Positions 12,448-37,040 of a stretch of DNA of 52,946 nt are shown piece after piece. This DNA comes from a virus (taxonomy: Duplodnaviria; Caudoviricetes). The DNA is taken from the IMG/VR virus record IMGVR_UViG_3300037991_003035, positions 1 through 52,946 of that record, one strand, 5' to 3'. The notes beneath the pieces were generated by a model. The model saw only the letters and a program-made list of their open reading frames with translations, had not been told where the DNA came from and did no database searches. The position numbers and the translations under genes are program-made. The first letter of the stretch is position 1, and every line of letters starts with the position of its first letter.

Positions 12448-12621
12448 ATGACTAGAAAACTAATAAAAGAAATTGGTAATGTATTAACTAGTGGTTATCT
12501 TAACAATAATAAAGTATTTACTATCTTATCTTTATTAGTGGCGAATGGTAACGCTAATGCGGACATGACTATGGAGGAAATTGATAGAGTCCTTCGTGAG
12601 CATTTTACTATCAAGAACTAG
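12448..12621 (+). CDS. Small early protein (57 aa; not in ORF track)
   Basis: MTRKLIKEIGNVLTSGYLNNNKVFTILSLLVANGNANADMTMEEIDRVLREHFTIKN; GGAG RBS. Confidence 0.65.
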   Translation: MTRKLIKEIGNVLTSGYLNNNKVFTILSLLVANGNANADMTMEEIDRVLREHFTIKN

Positions 12622-12623
12622 AT

Positions 12624-12695
12624 TATGAGGGAGTAGGTAGAGCGACTATGCAATCATTATTTATACCGTTAGTTCACTTCTCCTACTTCCTTATA
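12624..12695 (+). other. Long intergenic stem-loop
   Basis: TATGAGGGAGTAGG (12624-12637) pairs with CCTACTTCCTTATA (12682-12695): 14 bp including 2 G-U. Confidence 0.6.
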
Positions 12696-12699
12696 TTAA

Positions 12700-13514
12700 A
12701 AGATTTGGTCCATTCTACCATAAAAGAATCGGGTGTATATGCTCGTTACATAAAACTCAGAAATGAGTATAAAGTCAGAAATGGCGACATTATCTTCGGA
12801 TAGTGTTTGTGTATAAAATTGGAATATCAATTATGGCGTACAGATTCTCTCCTCGGTGAAAGCCAGGGTTTATCTAGATGTAATTGACTAGCACGATAGG
12901 GGTGTTAGTTGAGTTGGAAACAACAATAAGAAAATCCAAAAGATAATGAGTTAAGTGTCGTTGCGGTACTTGTTATCAGTCAGCATAGGTGAATGTCGTA
13001 GAAATACACAATCATCGTAGCTAAGACTACTTAAAACTCTAGATAACGACTAGAGACGGTAGGAAGTACTTATACTATTCGCTTCTCAAAAGGAAGTGAG
13101 GTATACAATTTTGTGCGGTACTTTCACATGACCCTTACTTTGCTATAATATACAAGCGTATTAGCTTCAAAGATAATATACTAGCATATATAACAAAAGG
13201 AAAAGTCACAAAACGTTTTAAATCAAAAGTGTTCTTGTTGTTGTCTGAAATACGATAGCTTCTAGTTGCTCCCAAAGCGCTAGAAAATTGACAAACAGCC
13301 AAGTTGGTCTAATTAACCATTAGTTGGAGCGGTAGCTTCGGATTGAGCTTAGTAGTCGGTTAACAGATTAAAACGATAAGAGTGATTAGCTATACTAATT
13401 GAACATGACATCGCAGTATGTAGGCAACTATAACTGGATAAAAGACTTAAGGGTAGAAATCCGTACGGGTCTCAAGGAGATGTTGGTAAAGGTGTAATCT
13501 CAACCTTTGCAATA
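12700..13514 (+). ncRNA. Large structured RNA, GOLLD-like (boundaries approximate)
   Basis: About 810 nt with no ORF of 60 aa or more; several GAAA and UUCG tetraloop hairpins; CUUC-UCAAAAG-GAAG hairpin; 3' hairpin AAAGGU-GUAAUCUCA-ACCUUU resembling the GOLLD 3' end as I recall it. Confidence 0.7.
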
Positions 13515-13781
13515 CTTACTCAAAGAATTATTTGATGATATATTAATGTGTTGATTTCCCAAAGTATATTTTATACGTTAATATCTACAACATTTGTTAG
13601 TGATTGTAGTGTTATTCGTATTTAACTGAGCAATGGCAAAAAAGCAGACGGATAGAAACGGCAACAGTTATTATATCTGGATAATGGAAGTGAGGTGATG
13701 AGCCGCATTCTAACCAAAAAATACTAATGTAGGTTGAGCGTTGTAATAGATACAGCGCAATATACCTTTTAAAGAAAGAAG

Positions 13782-15589: not shown

Positions 15590-15657
15590 GTCGTAGGTGG
15601 GTGCTATTTGTAACGAATAGTTAAATGGTTCCGTAATAGCCAGCCCTCTATAGCCTG
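15587..15657 (+). ncRNA. Candidate ~70-nt three-way-junction RNA element
   Basis: Outer stem TAGGTCGTAGG-T-GGGT / GCCC-TCTATAGCCTG enclosing hairpins GCTATTTG/CGAATAGT and TGGTT/AGCCA. Confidence 0.4.
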
Positions 15658-15665
15658 AAAAGGTA

Positions 15666-15694
15666 TTGACTATAACCTGATAAATAATTATATT
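15666..15694 (+). promoter_or_regulatory. Sigma70-like promoter
   Basis: TTGACT, 17-nt spacer, TATATT, then GAGGAGG RBS and ATG at 15710. Confidence 0.75.
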
Positions 15695-15709
15695 CTATGA
15701 GGAGGATTC

Positions 15710-17902: not shown

Positions 17903-18469
17903 ATGAAAGAAGCTAATATTAACTTTGTTAATGACGATAATTCTGGATACGTTCCAGTACCAGAAGCTACATATCCAGCTCATGTATCTTCATTTAAGAT
18001 GAATGAATACAACGGCAGTTATGTATTTAATGTTACGTTTCAAGTTGCAGATGAAGCTAAAGAGCTAAAGCTACCTAAGTTACGTAAAGATAATAATGGA
18101 AACCACGTACCTACAGGTGAACACGTTAGTGGTGCATTTGTAACAGGTAAAGAATATAGAACTGATAAAGGCGTATGGCTTACACCTAATCCTAGTGAAG
18201 GAGAAGAGTGGAAGAACAAACGTTATAAAGAGTTCTTTGAAAAAATGGGAGTATCATTTCCTAAAAACGATGATGGTATAGTTCAATTAGGCATAGTAGA
18301 AGATGAAGATGTATATGGTCTTCCTTGTTTAATTAAATTAAAAGAAACTGAGTTTACTAACAAAGATGGAGAATCAAAGAAATCTTTGCAAGTAACTGAA
18401 ATATCAGTTTGGGAAAACGGTACCAGAATCAGTAAAGAAGAGTTTGATGCTGATGATTTACCATTTTAG
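17903..18469 (+). CDS. Single-stranded DNA-binding protein (DUF669-like)
   Basis: YVPVPEATYPA N-terminus and acidic DADDLPF tail; adjacent to the annealase. Confidence 0.7.
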   Translation: MKEANINFVNDDNSGYVPVPEATYPAHVSSFKMNEYNGSYVFNVTFQVADEAKELKLPKLRKDNNGNHVPTGEHVSGAFVTGKEYRTDKGVWLTPNPSEGEEWKNKRYKEFFEKMGVSFPKNDDGIVQLGIVEDEDVYGLPCLIKLKETEFTNKDGESKKSLQVTEISVWENGTRISKEEFDADDLPF

Positions 18470-18471
18470 TA

Positions 18472-18500
18472 TTGAATAATTAATACTAATTTATTATATT
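18472..18500 (+). promoter_or_regulatory. Sigma70-like promoter
   Basis: TTGAAT, 17-nt spacer, TATATT; same GTA-TTGA...TATATT context as 15666. Confidence 0.7.
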
Positions 18501-18593
18501 ATATGAGGGTTCGGCGTATTGAGATTAACCAGGATATTCGGTTATCCCTGGTCATGTAAATACAGGTATTGGCTTGCTCAGAACCCTCGTATA
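18501..18593 (+). ncRNA. Structured 5' leader or candidate small RNA
   Basis: TATGAGGGTTC/GAACCCTCGTA 11-bp stem enclosing GTATT/AATAC and ACCAGG/CCTGGT; immediately followed by AAGGAGG. Confidence 0.5.
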
Positions 18594-18605
18594 AAAGGAG
18601 GAATC

Positions 18606-18785
18606 TTGGATAAACTTAAACAAGCACAAGAATTGTTGCGTGTAAATACTGTTTGGAATAGAATCATACAACGAATAAAGAATAGTTTAGAAATTGGTTC
18701 TAGTGAAAAAGATTTAATAGACGATATTGTGCAAATTGAATGGGCGAAGGAAAAACGCAATGAACGAAGCAGTAATAACGATTAA
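18606..18785 (+). CDS. Hypothetical protein (probable TTG start at 18606)
   Basis: AAGGAGG 4 nt upstream; in frame with track ORF 18519-18785. Confidence 0.6.
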   Translation: MDKLKQAQELLRVNTVWNRIIQRIKNSLEIGSSEKDLIDDIVQIEWAKEKRNERSSNND

Positions 18786-19156: not shown

Positions 19157-19584
19157 AATGCGAAGCATGTGGACACGAGAACGGAAGAAAATACAATCCA
19201 ATAAGGCGTATCATTTCTCTCTTAGAAGCAAGAGGCGAAACGTTGTGTCAAAAGAGATTAAAACGAATAATAAAAATAATTCGTACACAAATAGTTTCTG
19301 ATAGTAGTAATCAAAAAACCTTTTACTTTCTGCAAGCAATATCCAAAATACCTAACGATACTGTAGAAAGAGTACTTGGTAAGTATGAAATGGATGAACA
19401 TGCATATAGCGGTAAAGGGTTTGCATATCTTCAACAGATGATAATATCTGAACATGAAAATAAATCTAAACTATTAGAAAATGAAATAAAAAAGTTTGGT
19501 AGAACACCAAAGAAGACAAAAGTTGAGCGAGGAGAATATAAAGATGTCTATAGTAGCAATGGAGGAAACACTCTTTCCAGTTAA
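19153..19584 (+). CDS. Hypothetical protein (143 aa), N-terminal CxxC
   Basis: GGAGGAG RBS; ATGA overlap with the previous gene. Confidence 0.7.
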   Translation: MKCEACGHENGRKYNPIRRIISLLEARGETLCQKRLKRIIKIIRTQIVSDSSNQKTFYFLQAISKIPNDTVERVLGKYEMDEHAYSGKGFAYLQQMIISEHENKSKLLENEIKKFGRTPKKTKVERGEYKDVYSSNGGNTLSS

Positions 19585-20329
19585 AGAAGTTCCAGCAACC
19601 TTTATGAAAGCTGAAGGTAAAAAAAGAACTCTGATGACTGAAACAGGGTATAAGTTCATCGTAAGAGAAGATACAGGAGATGTACTATCTTGTATGACTG
19701 ATGAATATAAAGTAGTTGACAACAGAACTGTTGTTGATAAAGTACAAAAAGTATTAAAAGGAAATGGAGTTGAACTAGCTGAAGCAAGAACATTTTCTGG
19801 TGGACAACGTGCTATCTGGAAATGGAATTTCCCTAATACTGAAGTCAAAGTTGACAAAGGTGATTTAATAAATCCACAATTAATCGTTGCAAATAGTTAT
19901 GATGGTACAACATCAGTTAATGTAATGGGTGGTGCATTCAGACTTGTTTGTTTGAATGGTTTGACAATTGGTAATGTTTTAACTAAGAAAAAAGCAGTAC
20001 ATAAGAACAACAATACTGGTATTGTAGATATTGATAAGACAATAACGGATACAGTAACTATGTTAGTTCAGTTGTTTGAACAGGAATTTCCTAGACTGAC
20101 AAGTACTAAGCTTAGAAAGAAACATATGATAGATATATCTAAGATTATTCCAACACAATATATGGAAGACTTTACAAGATATTGCGTAAATAATAATATG
20201 AATACATATTGGGATTTACTAAATGCTTGTACTTATATTGCAACACACGTTGCACATAGAGATAGAGAGTCTGTACATCTAATGGAGAATCAGATATATC
20301 CTACAGTAACAAGATTAGCAAGAGCATAG
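19544..20329 (+). CDS. DUF932-family protein (probable ATG start at 19544)
   Basis: IVREDTGDVLS...YKVVDN, ANSYDGT, FRLVCLNGL motifs. Confidence 0.8.
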   Translation: MSIVAMEETLFPVKEVPATFMKAEGKKRTLMTETGYKFIVREDTGDVLSCMTDEYKVVDNRTVVDKVQKVLKGNGVELAEARTFSGGQRAIWKWNFPNTEVKVDKGDLINPQLIVANSYDGTTSVNVMGGAFRLVCLNGLTIGNVLTKKKAVHKNNNTGIVDIDKTITDTVTMLVQLFEQEFPRLTSTKLRKKHMIDISKIIPTQYMEDFTRYCVNNNMNTYWDLLNACTYIATHVAHRDRESVHLMENQIYPTVTRLARA

Positions 20330-20330
20330 G

Positions 20331-20894
20331 TTCCTGAGAATAAGATAGCTTCTTAATAAAGGTCCCTGAGATATAGACCACTTGATAGAGACTGGCTACG
20401 TTAACCGAAGTCGTATAGAAGTGTAGCACGACCCTCTCTACAAAGTCTATTCTCTTGCTGATAATCTATAGGATGATACATGGAAGAGCTCCAGTAGTTG
20501 CCTATAGTAACAACTACATTTAGTCTCACGGGAAGCATAGCAGACCACGTGGACGAAATTAGTAATTATAGTTAAGTTAAAACCTGAAGCTTAAGCGAAT
20601 GTATACGTACAAATATGGTTGGTGTATACGCTTAACTATATAATTAGGCGGTGATGGATTAGCCAGTAGACTCTAGAGTTTATAAGCCGCCTAAAGAATT
20701 AGAAAGTTGATATGGAGAAATACCATATTGTAAAACTCAATGACGGACCGAACCCTAGGGCGATACCTTTAATATAATCGGTTGGGGACAGAGTTAGAGC
20801 TCATATTTGAAGCGAATCTTTCTATAACATTAGGAGTAGCAACAGAAGGTGAGTCTTGCATAAAGTCCATGGAAACCGAAACTAGCTGCTCCTA
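20331..20894 (+). ncRNA. Array of five stem-closed structured RNA modules (family not recognised)
   Basis: Closing stems: 20331-39/20524-34; 20567-76/20631-40; 20644-51/20687-94; 20700-06/20818-24; 20831-40/20885-94; no ORF in the track. Confidence 0.65.
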
Positions 20895-20911
20895 TAACAT
20901 TTGGAGGAAAT

Positions 20912-21175
20912 ATGAAATTAAGTAAAAGAGAACAAGCATGGGAAGATAGAAAACAATCTTCTGATGACTTTATAATTAAAGAAAATTTTCAAGAAAGACT
21001 TAAAAATTTTAAGTCAGTTGACGTTTGGAGCAAAGAACATATTGCAGAACGTGAAAAATTCTATAAAAAATTCGGTAGAGCTTGGTGGATATTTTGTGGA
21101 GTTTCAGTTGTAGAAAAATACAACGAACAATGGATTAATAAATATAGAGTTTTAGATGGAGAAATAAATGAATAA
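20912..21175 (+). CDS. Hypothetical protein (87 aa)
   Basis: GGAGG RBS. Confidence 0.7.
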   Translation: MKLSKREQAWEDRKQSSDDFIIKENFQERLKNFKSVDVWSKEHIAEREKFYKKFGRAWWIFCGVSVVEKYNEQWINKYRVLDGEINE

Positions 21176-28262: not shown

Positions 28263-31200
28263 CTATTTACCTCTTGCCTTTACACATTTTTTACCAATTC
28301 TTTCATATCTAGCTTCATTCCATTCCATAAAATTACTTTTTGTTCTATTAACAAATGGTTTATCGCTAGGTATCAAGCCGCTATTTACATCTTCAAACAC
28401 ATAAACTCCTTTATCTATTGCTTCATATATTGCTGCAATTCCATTTACTCTATAATCTCCTCTACCAGCAAATTCATGAGCAATCAAACTATCTCCAACT
28501 AGACCACCTTTACGTGCTACACTTCTATATAAACCTGTACCTATACCAATATAAAATTGTTCGTAATAACTTAATCTACTCATACCGCTTTGGTTTATTT
28601 CATCTTGCAGTATATTAGTCATTCTTAATACACTATCATTATGTGTGTTTCCATATTCTGTAAAAGCACGAAACGCTTCTTGATTTCTTATAAATACTTT
28701 ATCTGATACTACAGATTCTAGGTTTGGTTTTTTACCATTAAGAACATCAACGACATCTCTACTTGTTTTAGCTAAATCTTTATTGAATTGTAAAGCTTCT
28801 GTTTTTTGATTAAATATATCTACTCTATGACTATTATTAAATCGTATTGCTAAGTTAATACGTTTAGACAAAGATTTATCATCTGATACAAATAAATATT
28901 TACCATTAAATTCTACAAATTTACCTGATTTTATATCTATATCAGGAGACATAATTCTACTTAGTACTATATCTATTTTATCAGCTAAACCATTTTCTTG
29001 AATAATAAGATATAGTTGTCTATCAAAATCATATTGTAAACTATCGTAGTCTTGGAATCCATATAATTTGCTTGTTCCATTAGTAGTTTCATAAAATTCT
29101 TTTTTATATTGACTAACAAAGTTATCTATTAATTTACTTTGTGCTTCTGTAATTTGTAAACCAGAACTTGCTATTCTTTGATTTAATACTCCAGCTGTAC
29201 TTCTACCTACAAATTCTGATAAGGTTTCTTCATACTTTCTTGGCTCTGTAATAAAATCTTTCATTTTTTCATTAACTAGCTCTCCTAGTTTTTTGTCAGA
29301 TAATTTTCCATGTTTATCATATATTTTTTTTATTCTAGCAACTAATTCTTTTTTAATATTTTCATCAAGGTCTTTAAATAGTTTGTTGTTTATTTCTTGT
29401 TTTAGTTCAGAATATTTTTTATCAAAACCTTTAGTTCTAGATGAATAATATTTAATTAAAGCATCTCCACTAAAATCATCTTCCCCATATTCTAATTTTT
29501 TACCAGCTTGTAATTCTTTTAATTTATCTAAATCAGAAAAATATTGTTCTTCAATTGCTTGTAATTTTATAGATGCATCGTGATAATTTTTTACGCCTTT
29601 AATAATATTTTCTGTTGCCTCACTAGCATCATCCATAAATTGAAAAGCTAATGTTTCAAACTCAGGTCCTTGATAGTCTAATCTATCTTTAATTTGTAAT
29701 TTATTAGCTGTAGTGTTTTGTTCATATAAAGAGCGTAACAATACATTTTGATAGTCTCTAGGAGATACATTTTTTAAATTTAAAGCGTTTTCATATGCTT
29801 TAGAACTTACTTGTCCAGCTAATCTCATAGTAAAACTACTATTAATATTATGTCCTCCAAAATCTAATTCATATAAATCTTTATACAAATCATCCCAAGC
29901 TTTTTGTCCTTGTCCTGCAGATTGACTTAAGATTAATTTTTTCATTTTTGCTTCAATAGATTGTTTAGCTAATGCTAAATCTTTATCGTAATTATCAATA
30001 ACCTTTACTCTTCTACTTGGACTAGCACTTCTTTTTCTACCTGTACTAAATTCACCACCACTATCTCTTAAGTATGTACTAAATATATTTACATATTCTC
30101 TTACAGCAAACATTTCATGGGGTTGAAATTCATCTGCTAACTTTAGTCCTTCTCCATCTACTCTTTCAAATATACCATCTTTACTAAAAAACAAATCATT
30201 CATAATAGTAGTTTTGCTTCCAAGTTTTTCTATATTATAACCACCAGTAGATATATCTAATGCTTTTTGATTGTACTCGTCTACTTTTGCTCCTATAATA
30301 GGGTCAATATTTTCTTTTACTCTTATATAAGTATTTTTTCCTATTTGCATAACAAGACCATTTGTTGGAAAAGGTTTTCCTCCTACGCCAGGAGTTCTAC
30401 TTTGTGTAGCTGTTAAAAATCTTAATATTTCAGGAAAGTTCATACCAGTTCCTTTAATTACAGCTTCATTTAATTTAGAGTTTTGTAATTCTGCAAACTT
30501 ATCTGAATCAGTAAGTGAAAAACCTTTATAATTATCAGGAGAACCTAGTGTATCTTGTGTATACATTTTTTTACCTAACAAATTATTAAAACCTTTCCAA
30601 ACATCTGCTGGTTGTGAGTACATACTTATAGTATCATCTATGTCGTAATCACCTTTTAACATATGAATAACATCTCCACTTGCTACAACTTTTTTATTTT
30701 TTTCTGATATACTTCCTATATCTTTAATTCCTTCTATAATAACACTACCTAGTCTTGTAATTGGATTTCTATAAGTTAAAGATGCTACCTGTACATCATC
30801 TACAACTTCAAAATAATCTACCAAGTCTTTTAATGTACTACCTTTTTTTGGTTTGTTTCTAACTAAATCGTCTAATTTTTTTACAGAAGAAGGAGTAAGT
30901 CCTTTTCTTAGTTCTTGGTCTCTCATTACATCTTTTAATTCAGTAATGTGTACAAGTCTATCTACGTCATTTTTATCTTTTAAAATTATAGCAAAATTAT
31001 CAACGTCTATTTCAGTTTGACCAGCATAATAAGACTCAGTAGTTTCACCATAACGTATAACACCTGTTTCATCTGCTATCATTGATTTTAATGAACCAGT
31101 AATATCTGGTTGTATAACTGCATTGTTACCGTGCTTAACCTTTGCATTTAAAACATATTCATCTGCAAACATATCAAAGTATTTATCATAAAACAAATAA

Positions 31201-34200
31201 GGGTCTACCCCTTCTTTTGCAAGTGATTGTAATACTCCAGGTTGAGAGTCTCTTAAATTTGTATCAGCATTTAGTTTATTACTATTTTGTTCAGTAAGAT
31301 ATAAAAAGTCTTCTATTGCTCCAGTTCTATCTGAATTATTCATATTTTTAGCTTTAGTATTATATGGTCTAATATTTTGTGTATAGTTATAAGAAACAAA
31401 TGCATTTAATGCCTCATCACCATTTTCAGCAAATGTTAAAAATCCTGTTAAATTAGGAGGCAACGCACCAGATTTTTTACCTTTACTAGACAATAAAGAT
31501 ATATCATTCATATTAAATTGAAATGAATTTGTGTCATCGAATGTTCTGTTAAAATCTTTTGCGGTATTAGGACTAAATATTCTTGAAGTTAAATCTGAAT
31601 TTATACCTTTAACTAAATCTTTTACACCACTTCTAGCTATAAAAATTATATTTTGTTGGTTTGCAGCCGTCATCATTTCTTGTGGAAAGTTTTTTGCACC
31701 TTGGTTTGGTATGTGTAATCCAGCTGTTTTCATTAACGCTATTTCATCTCCAACATCTTTATGTCCAATGTATTTTACACCAGACAATTCGCTAGTTTGA
31801 TTTAATGGAGTACCTAATAACATAGCTTCTAAATCATATAAATCAGTGGGTTTCATAGATGCTGCGTCTAATATACTTACATCTTCTTGTCTAAGTCTTT
31901 CTCTTCCTGCATCATATATTCTTTGGTCTCTTGCACTTAATGCATTATACTCTGTATCACTTAATTCTTTTTCTATATCTATATTAAATTCATCTTTGTA
32001 TTGTTTTATATCTCTTTTTCGTTGACTAAACATATCATTAATAGTTCCATCAGGTAATTCATCTTCAACTATTACAAATTTATAATCACCATTTACAACT
32101 TTATTTATTGTTGTTGCAACTTTGTTTAATGTAGGGTCTTTTGTGTCTTTTATAAATTCGCCTATTTGTCTCAATTGGTCACTATCAATATTTTTAGCTG
32201 ATTTGTTGTCATGTAGTTTAAATCTTTTTAGTGATTTAAATTGTTCTTCATCTGTTGCATTTCTTAAAGCTAACCATGTTTTTTCACCTAAACCAAATTC
32301 CATAGCTTTTTTACCATATGTTAAATCCATCATCATAGGTTGTATTAATTGAGTTATTTTTTTACCACTTATACTACCATCAGGATTTTTAGGTACTGCG
32401 TCAATGTCAAAAATATACTTTCCAGTATCTTCGTGTTTTCTTATATAAAAGTTTTCTTGTAATCCATCTAAAGCATTCTTACCCAGATTCTTTTTTCTCC
32501 ATTTTACATATCTATCAGCTATTTCATCTAATGCATCTATACCAGCTTTTTTATTTGTATCATTTATTCTAATTACAATATTTGTTTTTTCATTTAATCT
32601 AATTAAGATACCTTTGAAGCTTTCTAAATCTATATCATTTTCATCAAATTCTTCATCAATTCCTTTTTTTAAAGCTCTATTGCTTTTAAACCTATGATTA
32701 CCTGTTGCTAAATCATTTGCAATTTGATAGAAAAATTCATTATCATCTAAAGTTCTGTTTGCTCTATATACATTGTTAGCAAAACCATTATTGTTCATAA
32801 TAACTATTTTATCAGCTAAGGTACCATCTTCAAATATACCTCTTAAACTTTTTAATAATAAATTTTCTTGATATTGAAAATCTTCATAATTGCTAAATCC
32901 TCTACTACCATCGTATGTTACAGTTTTTAATACAACTCTATTTTCTAAGTTTGCACCTATAGCAATTAACTCTTGATTTAATTTTTCAACATCTACAAGA
33001 GGATTTGTTTCTATAATATTTTCACGCAATCTTTGTAAAAATACTTTAGTATGTGTTCTATTTCCGTTATTATCTACAAATCTACCATCATCTTTCATAA
33101 CTGAATATTTAGCATCTAAGTACTCTTTTATATTTACAGCATCTTTTGCTTTCTTAAAATGTTTACCTATAATAATACTATCTTCTCCATACTCAATTAA
33201 TAATTTAGAAATAGTGTTTGGAGATTCACTTAATTCTCTACTATGATTTAAATCAAAGTCTAACAACATTTCTTCTTTATCTTTTGGAGCCATCATATCA
33301 TCTATAATATTTCTTTCTTGTTCCGCAAATAATTGTTTCATTTTATCTTGATATATTTTTTCTGAAGAAATTGAATCATCAATTTTTTGCATTTCTTTCC
33401 AACTACGCAACTTTCTTTCGTTACTTAAAAATCCAGCTGTATTTAAATGGTTATAAAATTTTCTAAATTTATCATCACTATTTTCTATGTATTTTAATAT
33501 TTTACCTATAGTATCAATATTATCTGCTTCTAAATCTTTTACTTGTTTTTTTAGTGATTGAGCAAACATATTCATGTTGTCGTTATATTTTATAGTTTTA
33601 ATTTTTTCTATAGATTTTTTTAAACTATTTAATGTATTTATATCTTTAAAATACAGTGAACTATCTGTTACTTCTGTTAAATGTCCTGTCGTTATACCAT
33701 TTTCTGTTTTAAGTATATAAGGTTTAATAATTTCTTGAACTTCCATTATTAATTGTTTAGCTGCTTTATCAGCTTGTGATGCACTTAAATTATTATCAGA
33801 TTTAATTGTGTTTATAAAACTTGTTAAAAATTTTTTTGATTCACCAGATTCATAATCTTCTAAAAATTTTAAAAAATTCACTCCTTTTTGATGTTGACTA
33901 ATATCTAAGTCTGCTAAAATTCTTATATCCATGTGAATAGTATTAGAACTTCTTCCTTTAATTAAACTAAACTCTTCAAATGTTTCTAATATTGCTCTAT
34001 CTACATTAGTGTAAGATTGTAAATTTCCATCTACATTATATCTTTGATATTTTATCCATTGATTTTTCCATTCTAAATCTCCTATAAATGTTAAAAATGG
34101 AATATTAGGTCTATCTTTCATTCTAGAAAAAATACCAAAATCTTGTTCTACAAATAATTCTCTTAATTCGTTTACTTGAGCATTAGTTAATTTTTTTCTT

Positions 34201-37040
34201 TTTGTTTGTTTAACTAAATCATCTGCGCCTTGTTTTCTTAATAAAGGTAATAGACTTTTAACAAAGTTTTGATTTTGTTTACTAAGCTTAGAAATGTCTA
34301 CATGGCTTTCTAAGTATTTATATATACCATCTTCAGCAAATATTTCTTCTATTTTTGTACGAATTTTAGAATGTTGACTTCCAAACTTATCATCGTTTAA
34401 TACATTGTCTACAAACTTTACAAGTCTTTCAGAATTGTCTAAAGATTGCATCATATCTCCTATGTGATACATAAATTCATTATTAAAAGATAGTTTTCCT
34501 TTTGGAAGATTATTGTTAGATGAAAACAATTCAGCTCCACCATCTAATAAACTTTTAATGCTTGATAAGAATTCTCCTTTATCAGTTAAATCACTATTTT
34601 TAATTGACACTTTATTTGCACCCGATGCTTTAATTTTTCCAGTTCCATATTTTATAACATAATCTACGGCACGTGTTAGTTCTGTAAATAAAGCTTCTCC
34701 TTCAAAATCATCTAAATCTAATTCAGCACCTTTTCCAATTCTTTTTAAAACAAATTGGTCATTTCCATATTCTTTACTTCTAGTTTTTACAGGTTTATAA
34801 GCATCAGGCAATTTATTATATATATCTAATATTTGATTTTCCATTTCTTCTATGGTGCCTTTAAAATTTTCTATTACTGGTTTAGCATAGGTTACAATTA
34901 AATCTCTTGGATTATCAGGTCTAACATCTAATCCTTTCATAGTATCACTAAATAATTGTACTTGGTCAGCAGTTAATTCATCAAATGTTTTAAAGGTGGT
35001 TTTTTTAGTAGTAAAATTAACATTATCATACAACATAATAAAATCTTGATATAAACTTCTTAAATTATCTACATCTTCTATAGCATTAACTTTATCACGT
35101 TCATCTTTTTTTATTTTCTTTTCTTTACCACCAACGTCTTTTAAATAATCATTTTGAATCATACCCCTGATAGTGTTTGCAGTTGGAGAGTTTTCGTCAA
35201 TACCAGCCATTCTCATACCTTCTATACCTGCTGTAGCGTTGTTGCTAATTAATTGTCTTCTAATATGATTATATATTGGATGGTCTATGTGTACTCCTAT
35301 AGCATCACCTAATTGTACTTGTTCTTTTATATGTTGAAATCTATCTCCAATTTTTTCTTCCCAAGGAGTTGTAGTGGTTGTCCATTCAGATGTTCCATCT
35401 CTTAAAGGTCTACCTTTATATGTCATTTTGTGACCACGTTTAAATAAGAAATATCCTAACACAGCTGTCATTTTCCAATTATCTTCATCTATAGATTGTC
35501 CAAAAAAGTAAGGAGATGCACCAGCCATTCCTAAAATAAATGCTCCAGCACCTTGTCTGAATTTAGTTTGTGCAAAATCTTGAAGAATTAATTTACCATA
35601 ATCCATACGAGCTGCGTTAATGTTTACAGACTTAGCTACACCATTAAGAGATAATTTCATATACTCAGCTGCTGCTTCAGCTCTTTTAATATCTATTTCT
35701 GTTGCACCTTCTTGAGCTCCACGTATTACTAGTTGTTTTAAATCATGTGGATTTTTTTTACCTTTTAACAATGTATCCATTTCTTTAGGCAATAATTTTC
35801 CTGCTTGTTCCATAGCGTGTAATACTGCAGGTTGGTGCATTCTTGCATATAACATATAAGCTGAAGTAACATCTTCACGAGATTTTTGAGCAACTTTTGT
35901 TGTTCCTTTAACATTTGTGCCTTTATAATAATTTCCATTATTTTTCATTAAACTAGCTATAGTATCTCTAGCTTCTTTATTCATAATGCTTAATGGACCT
36001 TTTGCTAAACCTCCTGGTATAAATCTAACACTAGCAGCTGCTGGACCAAACAATAATGCTTCAGCTAACATTTGTTTACCAGTATAAGGATTTTCTTCAC
36101 CTCTTATATTTCTAGAAGCCATCCAAGCTCCTTCTACCATAGTGTAATATAAAACGTCTTCTGCTGCATGACCAAACCAAATATCAGCTTTACTATATTC
36201 TTTCATACCTAATTTTCTTAATGGATTAAATTCTGTTAATAAATCAGGTAATGTGTTTATTGGTTTAAAACCTTCACTCCAATATTTACTTGCTTTTTTA
36301 TTAATTTCTTCAACAACGCTATTAACTATTCTTCCACTTTTATCTTTTGTTGCTCTACCAAAAGTATATCCTAAATCTTTACCAACTTTTTCTAAGTAAT
36401 TTCCAATACCATCATTGAATTTTTTTTGTACTTCTTCTGGTCCAAAACGTTTGCCGTAAAATCCAGCTCTTCTGGTATCGTCAAAATTGTTAACTGCTTT
36501 AAATAAATCATCTGAAGCGGCTACTTCATTTATAAATTTTTCAGCACTAATCTTTTCACTACCTTTCATAATAGTGACTCCACCTCTAGTTAGTGCTCCT
36601 GTTGCAATATCTTTTATATTATCAGTCGCATTAATTTGTTTTAAAATTTTAGTTTTACCTAAAGCTGTTCCTTTAGCTGCTTTACCTAGCCCTTTAATAC
36701 CCATTAAACCAAGTTTACCTACACCAACATAGGGAGTAAAAAACCCAGCTAAATTACCTAAAGCGTATGCATTACTATTTCTATTTGCATCTATACCTAA
36801 ACGACTTCCATCTGCAAAACCAAAACTTGCACTTTCAATTGCACCTCCTGCAAAATTTTCTAATGTTTGACCTATTCCTGTGCTTTTAATTGGTGATACA
36901 AATTTTCCTTCATCTGTTGTAGCGCTAGATAATGATTGTGATAAGCTTGTACCTAATGAATCAAGCATAGTTAATTCATTTGTTTGAGCTTGATTTTGAT
37001 TTCGTTCAGCTCGTAACTTTTCAAGTAACGTTTGTGCCAT
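28263..37040 (-). CDS. Giant (2925 aa) putative virion-associated two-barrel RNA polymerase / ejection protein
   Basis: YRNP (R2091) 40 aa before GDYDIDD (D2131-D2135, nt 30650-30636); upstream D1725...K1756...K1771...SGVK; downstream QKALDIS. Confidence 0.75.
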   Translation of the reverse strand: MAQTLLEKLRAERNQNQAQTNELTMLDSLGTSLSQSLSSATTDEGKFVSPIKSTGIGQTLENFAGGAIESASFGFADGSRLGIDANRNSNAYALGNLAGFFTPYVGVGKLGLMGIKGLGKAAKGTALGKTKILKQINATDNIKDIATGALTRGGVTIMKGSEKISAEKFINEVAASDDLFKAVNNFDDTRRAGFYGKRFGPEEVQKKFNDGIGNYLEKVGKDLGYTFGRATKDKSGRIVNSVVEEINKKASKYWSEGFKPINTLPDLLTEFNPLRKLGMKEYSKADIWFGHAAEDVLYYTMVEGAWMASRNIRGEENPYTGKQMLAEALLFGPAAASVRFIPGGLAKGPLSIMNKEARDTIASLMKNNGNYYKGTNVKGTTKVAQKSREDVTSAYMLYARMHQPAVLHAMEQAGKLLPKEMDTLLKGKKNPHDLKQLVIRGAQEGATEIDIKRAEAAAEYMKLSLNGVAKSVNINAARMDYGKLILQDFAQTKFRQGAGAFILGMAGASPYFFGQSIDEDNWKMTAVLGYFLFKRGHKMTYKGRPLRDGTSEWTTTTTPWEEKIGDRFQHIKEQVQLGDAIGVHIDHPIYNHIRRQLISNNATAGIEGMRMAGIDENSPTANTIRGMIQNDYLKDVGGKEKKIKKDERDKVNAIEDVDNLRSLYQDFIMLYDNVNFTTKKTTFKTFDELTADQVQLFSDTMKGLDVRPDNPRDLIVTYAKPVIENFKGTIEEMENQILDIYNKLPDAYKPVKTRSKEYGNDQFVLKRIGKGAELDLDDFEGEALFTELTRAVDYVIKYGTGKIKASGANKVSIKNSDLTDKGEFLSSIKSLLDGGAELFSSNNNLPKGKLSFNNEFMYHIGDMMQSLDNSERLVKFVDNVLNDDKFGSQHSKIRTKIEEIFAEDGIYKYLESHVDISKLSKQNQNFVKSLLPLLRKQGADDLVKQTKRKKLTNAQVNELRELFVEQDFGIFSRMKDRPNIPFLTFIGDLEWKNQWIKYQRYNVDGNLQSYTNVDRAILETFEEFSLIKGRSSNTIHMDIRILADLDISQHQKGVNFLKFLEDYESGESKKFLTSFINTIKSDNNLSASQADKAAKQLIMEVQEIIKPYILKTENGITTGHLTEVTDSSLYFKDINTLNSLKKSIEKIKTIKYNDNMNMFAQSLKKQVKDLEADNIDTIGKILKYIENSDDKFRKFYNHLNTAGFLSNERKLRSWKEMQKIDDSISSEKIYQDKMKQLFAEQERNIIDDMMAPKDKEEMLLDFDLNHSRELSESPNTISKLLIEYGEDSIIIGKHFKKAKDAVNIKEYLDAKYSVMKDDGRFVDNNGNRTHTKVFLQRLRENIIETNPLVDVEKLNQELIAIGANLENRVVLKTVTYDGSRGFSNYEDFQYQENLLLKSLRGIFEDGTLADKIVIMNNNGFANNVYRANRTLDDNEFFYQIANDLATGNHRFKSNRALKKGIDEEFDENDIDLESFKGILIRLNEKTNIVIRINDTNKKAGIDALDEIADRYVKWRKKNLGKNALDGLQENFYIRKHEDTGKYIFDIDAVPKNPDGSISGKKITQLIQPMMMDLTYGKKAMEFGLGEKTWLALRNATDEEQFKSLKRFKLHDNKSAKNIDSDQLRQIGEFIKDTKDPTLNKVATTINKVVNGDYKFVIVEDELPDGTINDMFSQRKRDIKQYKDEFNIDIEKELSDTEYNALSARDQRIYDAGRERLRQEDVSILDAASMKPTDLYDLEAMLLGTPLNQTSELSGVKYIGHKDVGDEIALMKTAGLHIPNQGAKNFPQEMMTAANQQNIIFIARSGVKDLVKGINSDLTSRIFSPNTAKDFNRTFDDTNSFQFNMNDISLLSSKGKKSGALPPNLTGFLTFAENGDEALNAFVSYNYTQNIRPYNTKAKNMNNSDRTGAIEDFLYLTEQNSNKLNADTNLRDSQPGVLQSLAKEGVDPYLFYDKYFDMFADEYVLNAKVKHGNNAVIQPDITGSLKSMIADETGVIRYGETTESYYAGQTEIDVDNFAIILKDKNDVDRLVHITELKDVMRDQELRKGLTPSSVKKLDDLVRNKPKKGSTLKDLVDYFEVVDDVQVASLTYRNPITRLGSVIIEGIKDIGSISEKNKKVVASGDVIHMLKGDYDIDDTISMYSQPADVWKGFNNLLGKKMYTQDTLGSPDNYKGFSLTDSDKFAELQNSKLNEAVIKGTGMNFPEILRFLTATQSRTPGVGGKPFPTNGLVMQIGKNTYIRVKENIDPIIGAKVDEYNQKALDISTGGYNIEKLGSKTTIMNDLFFSKDGIFERVDGEGLKLADEFQPHEMFAVREYVNIFSTYLRDSGGEFSTGRKRSASPSRRVKVIDNYDKDLALAKQSIEAKMKKLILSQSAGQGQKAWDDLYKDLYELDFGGHNINSSFTMRLAGQVSSKAYENALNLKNVSPRDYQNVLLRSLYEQNTTANKLQIKDRLDYQGPEFETLAFQFMDDASEATENIIKGVKNYHDASIKLQAIEEQYFSDLDKLKELQAGKKLEYGEDDFSGDALIKYYSSRTKGFDKKYSELKQEINNKLFKDLDENIKKELVARIKKIYDKHGKLSDKKLGELVNEKMKDFITEPRKYEETLSEFVGRSTAGVLNQRIASSGLQITEAQSKLIDNFVSQYKKEFYETTNGTSKLYGFQDYDSLQYDFDRQLYLIIQENGLADKIDIVLSRIMSPDIDIKSGKFVEFNGKYLFVSDDKSLSKRINLAIRFNNSHRVDIFNQKTEALQFNKDLAKTSRDVVDVLNGKKPNLESVVSDKVFIRNQEAFRAFTEYGNTHNDSVLRMTNILQDEINQSGMSRLSYYEQFYIGIGTGLYRSVARKGGLVGDSLIAHEFAGRGDYRVNGIAAIYEAIDKGVYVFEDVNSGLIPSDKPFVNRTKSNFMEWNEARYERIGKKCVKARGK

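Follow-up and report, generated by a model that had tools for sequence, protein, structure and literature searches.

The stretch of viral DNA analysed here (hereafter, the window) is the whole of IMG/VR virus record IMGVR_UViG_3300037991_003035, 52,946 nucleotides (nt) in length. Its + strand carries a gene-free gap of about 580 nt (20330–20911), bounded by the stop codon of a DUF932 gene (20329) and the start of the next gene (20912). Our comparison with related phages shows that a mosaic of RNA modules fills this gap, at least eight in number, each folding independently and specific to one strand. The modules belong to a larger pool maintained by a lineage of uncultured marine phages in the early recombination/replication operon.

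The original prediction, made from the letters of the window alone, divided the gap into five structured, non-coding modules, A to E. The gap is indeed non-coding: it is poor in open reading frames (ORFs), and the longest on the + strand spans 47 amino acids (aa) and overlaps modules D and E. The stems predicted for B, C, D and E reappear in place as inverted repeats I5, I14, I2 and I8, they are the closing helices of separate domains in the minimum-free-energy fold, and the AU-rich linkers between the modules are as predicted. The boundaries of B to E hold, but the supposed single domain A (20331–20534) resolves into four modules, raising the total to at least eight: its predicted end cuts through a module, and P0, A1, A2 and A3 each occur without the others in relatives. 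The + strand fold has z = −2.94, with 1 of 100 shuffles as good, and the − strand fold z = −1.24; no tandem repeats are present in the array region. The array comprises the following elements.

20316–20324, + strand: 5′ arm of the outer helix, within the DUF932 coding sequence; can pair with 20452–20460, enclosing P0 and A1
20328–20367, + strand: P0, twin 8-nt motif AGGUYCCU whose copies can pair, with a variable loop; overlaps the DUF932 stop codon
20369–20455, + strand: A1, 87 nt, nested helices and an H-type pseudoknot
20452–20464, + strand: junction motif, with the 3′ arm of the outer helix; kept after A1 or after a G1 module in relatives
20466–20507, + strand: A2, 42-nt hairpin (inverted repeat I18)
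about 20515–20563, + strand: A3, about 49 nt, including an 8-nt palindrome
20567–20640, + strand: B, 74 nt, closing stem of 10–11 base pairs (bp) and an inner hairpin (I5)
20644–20694, + strand: C, 51-nt three-way junction (I14)
20700–20824, + strand: D, 125 nt, multi-helix; core (about 65 nt) invariant (I2)
20831–20894, + strand: E, 64 nt (I8), a conserved closing-stem scaffold with an interior that differs among relatives

Mosaic composition of arrays in relatives

A DUF932 protein search yielded 31 viral loci and a DUF932 alignment search 80 metagenome loci, at 42–99% identity (individual loci are designated by L and a three-digit number). Arrays are borne by 49 loci and reduce to 30 non-redundant arrays, including one from a second intergenic site (L033, see below) and one partial array (L038). 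Mapping of 19 seed modules onto these 30 arrays reveals an order that is collinear yet combinatorial and reads, approximately, P0, A1 or G1, the junction motif, F, K or A2, and then A3, B, C, J, D and L, with one scaffold module, E, G, H or I, in the final position. About 20 different compositions or orders occur, built from at least 18 module families in all and ranging from A1 alone (L004, L010) up to the eight modules of the window; array lengths in the relatives are 116–530 nt.

Presence/absence breakpoints in the relatives match the B–E boundaries, bearing out the prediction of self-contained modules and showing that they are gained and lost independently. The A1 core is precisely absent from L047, and L027 has lost one sub-domain of D with the D closing stem kept. 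A2 is present in L024/L025 without P0, A1, A3 or B, and there two neighbouring pairs of its closing stem are swapped on both sides. Among all arrays, A3 is confined to those of the window and L019/L045. The E scaffold holds at least four types of interior, one of them 175 nt long inside the E closing stem of L024/L025, and the window-type E interior sits in a G-type closing stem in L049. These interior swaps and variants indicate that modules of the E, G and I/N type are conserved basal helices with exchangeable interiors.

Only in the clade whose DUF932 is at least about 75% identical does an array come after this gene. The DUF932 stop codon overlaps the ATG of the next gene in L058 (76.5%), L062 (73%) and L063–L065, the overlapping gene in L058 and L062 being a homologue of the 87-aa gene that follows the array in the window. 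This stop-to-start overlap in more distant relatives indicates that the array was inserted between two genes that had been coupled. The genome of the phage contains it once. The 23-nt core of C, the only module scanned beyond the loci, occurs in 13 viral contigs, all of this phage group, and in 0 of 185,579 prokaryote species genomes.

One module pool at three intergenic sites

Whereas the original prediction described one local cassette, modules from a single pool stand at three intergenic sites across this lineage of phages. With the array downstream of DUF932 counted as site 1, the other two are as follows.

18470–18606, + strand: site 2, variable and non-coding; in the window it holds one large stem-closed module (18500–18593) that abuts the ribosome-binding site (RBS)
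15599–15652, + strand: site 3, in the gap 15590–15709; a module of family L (blastn match: 30 nt at 90% identity, E = 1e-5)

Site 2 lies about 1.5 kb upstream of the array, between homologues of the window genes that end at 18469 and start at 18607. Relatives have an ATG preceded by an RBS at the latter position, and the gene after site 2 therefore most likely starts at TTG 18607 rather than at the program-assigned 18519. The length of site 2 varies from 132 to more than 696 nt across relatives, and in L033, L062 and L028 it carries members of families A1, B, C, F, J, G and L, with a copy of B in L062. All relatives examined have a terminal module beside the RBS there; its closing stem is conserved, its interior variable. 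Site 2 of L029 contains two tandem paralogues of a 113-nt module. In L062, the 14 nt before the site 2 copy of A1 are those with which DUF932 ends in the clade of the window, which points to either transfer of an array together with a scrap of DUF932 or recombination at that microhomology.

Module family L has been found at all three sites: at site 1 in L007, L009, L027 and L051, at site 2 in L058 and L062, and at site 3 in the window and L002/L003. Altogether, 608,547 bases of loci contain 191 module matches at 60% coverage or more, 179 at site 1, 6 at site 2 and 2 at site 3; the remaining 4 come from a locus truncated ahead of DUF932. The L module of site 3 is followed by a match to a sigma-70-like promoter (10 of 12 positions) at 15666–15694.

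Constrained cores, shared ends and palindromes

Module cores are far better kept than the flanking genes, and their peripheral hairpins vary. In L010, A1 is 100% identical beside an upstream gene at 82% DNA identity, and in L020 D, E and C are kept at 99%, 98% and 98%, yet the gene is at 79%. Conversely, the gene is at 97% in L002 and L047, yet A1 is at 86% and B at 81%. The D core is identical in six variants whose neighbouring gene has 79–84% DNA identity. Strong sequence constraint on the module cores is shown, and the uncoupling of module identity from flanking-gene identity indicates that modules are exchanged among phages.

Most modules begin with (A)UUAG or UAG and end with CUA(A), and they are separated by linkers of 3–9 nt composed almost only of A and U. 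Palindromes are abundant: the 582 nt of the window array contain 18 perfect palindromes of at least 6 nt, with a window mean of 9.3 (standard deviation 3.4), and palindromes of at least 8 nt with at least four G/C occur at 5.58 per kb in arrays versus 0.43 per kb in flanks, although arrays share modules and these counts are non-independent. Three of the palindromes change by symmetric substitution. The A1 palindrome has the alleles GTTAAC, TGTACA and TGCGCA, which differ by symmetric double substitutions; the 8-mer in B has a central TTAA or CTAG; and the 8-mer in E has a central CATG or TATA. By themselves, these segments of A1, B and E are not long enough to fold into hairpins. The presence of palindromes in most modules, three of which change yet remain palindromic, suggests that several modules may pair with a second copy of themselves.

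Covariation and strand specificity

The predicted folding is supported by homologues, with compensatory changes in the stems of several modules. For A1 (12 distinct sequences), 99.1% of alignment cells are paired and three pairs show compensatory change; its covariation score of 0.103 is attained by none of 500 shuffles (0.066), and slid controls score far lower. One pair of the A1 pseudoknot is GC in seven sequences and AU in five. For C (nine variants), 100% of cells are paired, with two compensatory pairs and a score that exceeds the slid controls and is reached by 4 of 500 shuffles; its interior is almost invariant, and it contains several G–U pairs on the + strand that would be A–C on the other. 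B (five variants) has two compensatory pairs, one in each main helix, and its variants are compatible with the predicted cross-pairing (one A–U to G–U change) without proving it. In D (six variants), a peripheral hairpin covaries; the D pseudoknot lies in the core, which is identical throughout, so the variants carry no covariation signal for it. Nine bona fide variants of G share a basal stem of 6–7 bp and a 1×1 A/A loop, above which the sequence of the upper stem differs in almost every variant with complementarity kept.

The + strand fold is the more stable one in 25 of 30 arrays, and all 110 module copies at 50% coverage or more, moved copies included, are co-oriented with the operon, with none inverted. 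The modules, F excepted, display helix covariation, though from few independent events, together with strand specificity, the generic hallmarks of structured RNA.

The array starts inside the 3′ end of the DUF932 gene, whose last codons make up the 5′ arm of the outermost helix. This helix corresponds to inverted repeat I1 (16 nt, 88% complementary) and, from complementarity, would form around P0 and A1 by pairing of 20316–20324 with 20452–20460, with no covariation seen in it; in L024/L025 its arms make a simple hairpin around the DUF932 stop codon. P0 coincides with direct repeat D3, and neither its motif nor the junction motif is enriched elsewhere in the window. At the other end, a 15-nt direct repeat, D2 (93%), flanks E at 20822–20836 and 20892–20906. 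Because the second copy contains the real RBS, the 5′ arm of E looks like a duplicated RBS region.

Presence in RNA libraries

Parts of the window are represented in six RNA runs, and the four examined (X11, X16, X17 and X18) all consist of assembled contigs. Metatranscriptome X11 contains an 869-nt contig over 19802–20668 with two differences, and shorter contigs over C and D. Contigs of X16, from the same sample, cover A2 to D, and one of them has 16 other letters in place of 20505–20566 (A3). In X18, from another study, a contig joins 20459 to 20642 through 103 other letters, which represents a different module set. The contigs of X17 cover coding parts only, and X17, X19 and X20 contain only small shares; positions without a contig are uninformative. 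A promoter and terminator scan found no excess of promoter-like sites and no terminator within the array. Two promoter-like matches (10 of 12 positions) lie inside the DUF932 gene, at 19716–19743 and 19851–19880; the 869-nt contig starts at 19802.

Genome setting and flanking genes

The virus record (52,946 bases, about 32% G+C) is complete or nearly complete (99%). Profile matches identify the + strand block at about 11.7–25.3 kb as a recombination/replication operon, in agreement with the predicted location of the array, which has genes for Sak, a PD-(D/E)XK nuclease, DUF932, a Dam methylase, DnaB and a resolvase nearby; both an exonuclease and the Sak annealing protein are phage-encoded. 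The genes of the block and those adjoining the array are as follows.

about 11.7–25.3 kb, + strand: winged-helix protein, PD-(D/E)XK nuclease, Sak single-strand annealing protein, DUF932
same block, continued, + strand: small ORFs without a family, Dam-type methyltransferase, DnaB, Holliday-junction resolvase
19544–20329, + strand: DUF932 gene, 5′ of the array (Pfam PF06067, E = 8e-23)
20899–21175, + strand: RBS and downstream 87-aa gene of no known family, start at 20912

The portal, large terminase and tail-fibre genes are on the opposite strand, which also has a 2,925-aa ORF (28263–37040) with no PHROG family at E ≤ 1e-5. On the + strand, about 1.1 kb (12620–13780) contain no ORF of 80 aa or more, and the whole-window Rfam search at gathering score is empty there. 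The closest matches of DnaB and the large terminase (TerL) in 50,697 phage records have only 23–31% identity, indicating that the phage has no close cultured relative and that no host can be inferred; blastn of the array region against the same records returned zero matches.

The DUF932 gene most likely starts at ATG 19544 rather than TTG 19496, because relatives carry stop codons between the two. Its profile gave nothing below E = 0.07 against PDB sequences, and Foldseek returned no match at E ≤ 0.001 for an AlphaFold model of the protein (mean pLDDT 75), so no link between protein and RNA could be drawn. An Rfam search of ten relatives' loci (68 kb) returned only two sub-threshold matches to the group II intron D1–D4 model (24 bits; gathering score 34), both within the DUF932 coding sequence (L053:1820–1961 and L008:4268–4409), which we take as chance.

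Proposed function and alternative explanations

The explanation that we prefer, tentatively and at somewhat less than an even chance, is that the modules are portable small-RNA genes whose products would be cut from the operon RNA at A/U linkers and would act in trans as stable RNAs. They would be promoterless ('RNA morons') and transcribed as part of the operon RNA. A single-strand-specific host endonuclease of the RNase E type would free them at the short all-A/U linkers, each module would have its ends shielded by its terminal helix (commonly UAG...CUA), and each product would act in trans as a stable RNA with a partner of its own. Many of the linkers fit the preference of RNase E. Rapid combinatorial turnover together with invariant cores, as found in accessory and counter-defence loci, favours roles in conflict; the products may bind, sponge or decoy host or competitor factors, which we favour over housekeeping. 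A more elaborate form of this proposal, to which we assign a low probability, casts the pool of portable cassettes as an RNA counterpart of phage anti-defence islands: a shared set of decoys, sponges and aptamers for factors of the host or of rival phages, many of them self-pairing as dimers or larger assemblies through an exposed palindrome, that would be reshuffled among three early-operon slots under an arms race.

Several observations weigh against small-RNA genes that act in trans. Covariation rests on few independent substitution events (5–12 variants per family), some of the compensatory changes could stem from templated mutation in DNA hairpins, and F has zero covariation, with the L028 row of its alignment consisting partly of gaps. 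The five arrays in which the + strand fold is not the more stable are short and dominated by A1, which alone folds slightly better on the − strand when its pseudoknot is ignored. The L062 variant of B breaks the palindrome. RNA libraries from two studies contain the array and variants of it, but as contigs that show neither ends, strand nor level, and DNA carry-over is possible. Finally, arrays always stand directly between a stop codon and an RBS, a placement that also fits a role in cis.

Such a role, which we regard as unlikely, would make the modules processing sites of the operon RNA, stabilisers of a 5′ or 3′ end, obstacles to exonucleases or Rho, or leaders for translation; as leaders, they would set the expression of DUF932 against that of the downstream replication genes after the ancestral coupling broke. 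Arrays lie between stop codon and RBS at all three sites with the last module always abutting the RBS, the outer helix takes in the DUF932 stop region, and the closing stem of E pairs a Shine–Dalgarno-like (SD-like) arm with an anti-SD-like arm. However, an SD/anti-SD switch in E appears weak on reading the sequence, the anti-SD arm making 4 pairs with the real SD and 10 with its own partner. Eight different modules far exceed what a cis element would need, the internal ones touch no gene, the cores are invariant in loops as well as stems, and the same module is found at three different gene junctions. Selfish or neutral DNA is another reading, in which small palindromic insertions or products of hairpin recombination would be shuffled by end microhomology at permissive spots. 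The closing stems do resemble terminal inverted repeats, many modules share ends and short direct repeats at their junctions (including the 15-nt repeat around E), insertions are nested in hairpin loops with precise presence and absence, modules relocate among three sites, palindromes are enriched, and the phage encodes its own Sak annealing protein and exonuclease. Yet there is one copy per genome, 110 of 110 copies have one orientation, the C core is confined to this phage group with no hit in the prokaryote genomes, and a scan of 49 ORFs, not every small one included, turned up neither a transposase nor an integrase. Invariant cores with peripheral variation, G–U pairs and a covarying pseudoknot likewise argue against selfish DNA, which we think quite unlikely.

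Two further readings treat the array as a larger whole or as DNA. A single multi-domain RNA that self-assembles through palindromic loop–loop contacts in the manner of ROOL or GOLLD would account for a length of about 580 nt, near that of ROOL, and for enriched self-complementary segments of which three change yet stay palindromic; natural phage-associated RNAs reportedly form homo-oligomers. This reading is very unlikely given that Rfam returns no match to ROOL or GOLLD, that there is no fixed architecture (116–530 nt with differing module sets), and that no covarying helix between modules was found, the outer helix around P0 and A1 aside. We consider it extremely unlikely that the modules work as DNA hairpins on a single-stranded + strand, for priming or helicase loading, as an origin, or as hairpin promoters. 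Their location within a replication/recombination operon with DnaB, the tolerance of DNA hairpins for G–T wobbles and the enrichment of palindromes would fit this reading, but origins do not usually come in 20 interchangeable combinations, some of just 116–140 nt; covariation in a pseudoknot and invariant loops suit RNA better; and the region lacks a promoter-like excess and is present in RNA libraries.

If the modules act in trans, as we prefer, they would constitute a large untapped source of new RNA families, possibly including binders, ribozymes or self-assembling RNAs, and a tractable comparative system in which module swaps have already been made by nature. Proteins account for almost all that has been described of phage accessory and counter-defence biology. 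In the present lineage, marine and widespread, up to about 1% of a 53-kb genome is given to at least 18 uncatalogued, fast-shuffling RNA folds, which may represent a general and apparently undescribed class of phage locus.

Comparison with known systems

As predicted, the array contains no tRNA, and it matches no known RNA family. ARAGORN finds 0 genes across the whole window, and the Rfam 15 models match nothing in the window at gathering score and nothing in 20200–21000 at E ≤ 10, which leaves no candidate for a tRNA or tRNA-like element, or for a catalogued self-cleaving ribozyme or riboswitch. Literature searches, mostly at listing or abstract level, returned no description of such arrays. 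Judged by these searches, the modules belong to no described RNA family.

The array resembles phage tRNA clusters, in which small structured RNAs with paired 5′ and 3′ ends stand head to tail, content varies among related phages, and non-tRNA members without known function are co-transcribed. The T4 species 1 and 2 RNAs (rnaC/rnaD), for example, are reportedly stable RNAs co-transcribed in such a cluster. The array differs in having no tRNA or tRNA-like Rfam match and in lying inside a protein-coding operon, and its processing is only proposed. A ToxI-like type III toxin–antitoxin array does not fit: tandem repeats are absent, the modules bear no relation to one another, and the adjoining genes are DUF932 and small ORFs that match no family, versus the endoribonuclease toxin gene found beside ToxI-like arrays. 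Integron attC sites likewise combine a conserved hairpin structure and conserved bases with variable tops in cassette arrays. However, the ends (A)UUAG...CUA(A) are unlike attC core sites, no ORFs lie between the hairpins, and the 49 scanned ORFs, which leave out some small ones, include no recombinase family, so that an integron cassette array is not a suitable description.

Long transcribed intergenic regions have been reported in another marine phage, the Cellulophaga crAss-like phage phi14:2, in which two such regions are transcribed above most genes (10.1101/2020.03.07.982082). These are transcribed early, abundant and persistent, and the authors state that their function remains undetermined (10.1101/2020.03.07.982082). 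The likeness to our array is one of description, and the portion of that report available to us contains no modular or comparative analysis. ROOL and GOLLD (RF03087 and RF01998) are, like the array, phage-associated, several hundred nt long and densely structured, and they are reported to self-assemble. The array is instead a chain of separable units with variable membership; with no single conserved architecture and no model match, it does not belong to either class.

Mobile hairpin elements provide the remaining comparison. A miniature inverted-repeat transposable element (MITE) or Correia-like element would not be expected to keep to a single genomic place, with copies oriented 110 to 0 and a C core without prokaryote matches. 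Given the shared short ends, the modules may nevertheless carry target-site duplications. The PeSL and PmSL elements of T4-type phages, REP/BIME and Correia elements are also intergenic hairpin units at mosaic boundaries, and short shared ends could drive shuffling in both cases. Those elements are short, occur in many copies per genome and flank protein-coding cassettes, whereas the modules of the array are single-copy, fall into many unrelated families, measure 42–175 nt and possess multi-helix cores and a pseudoknot.

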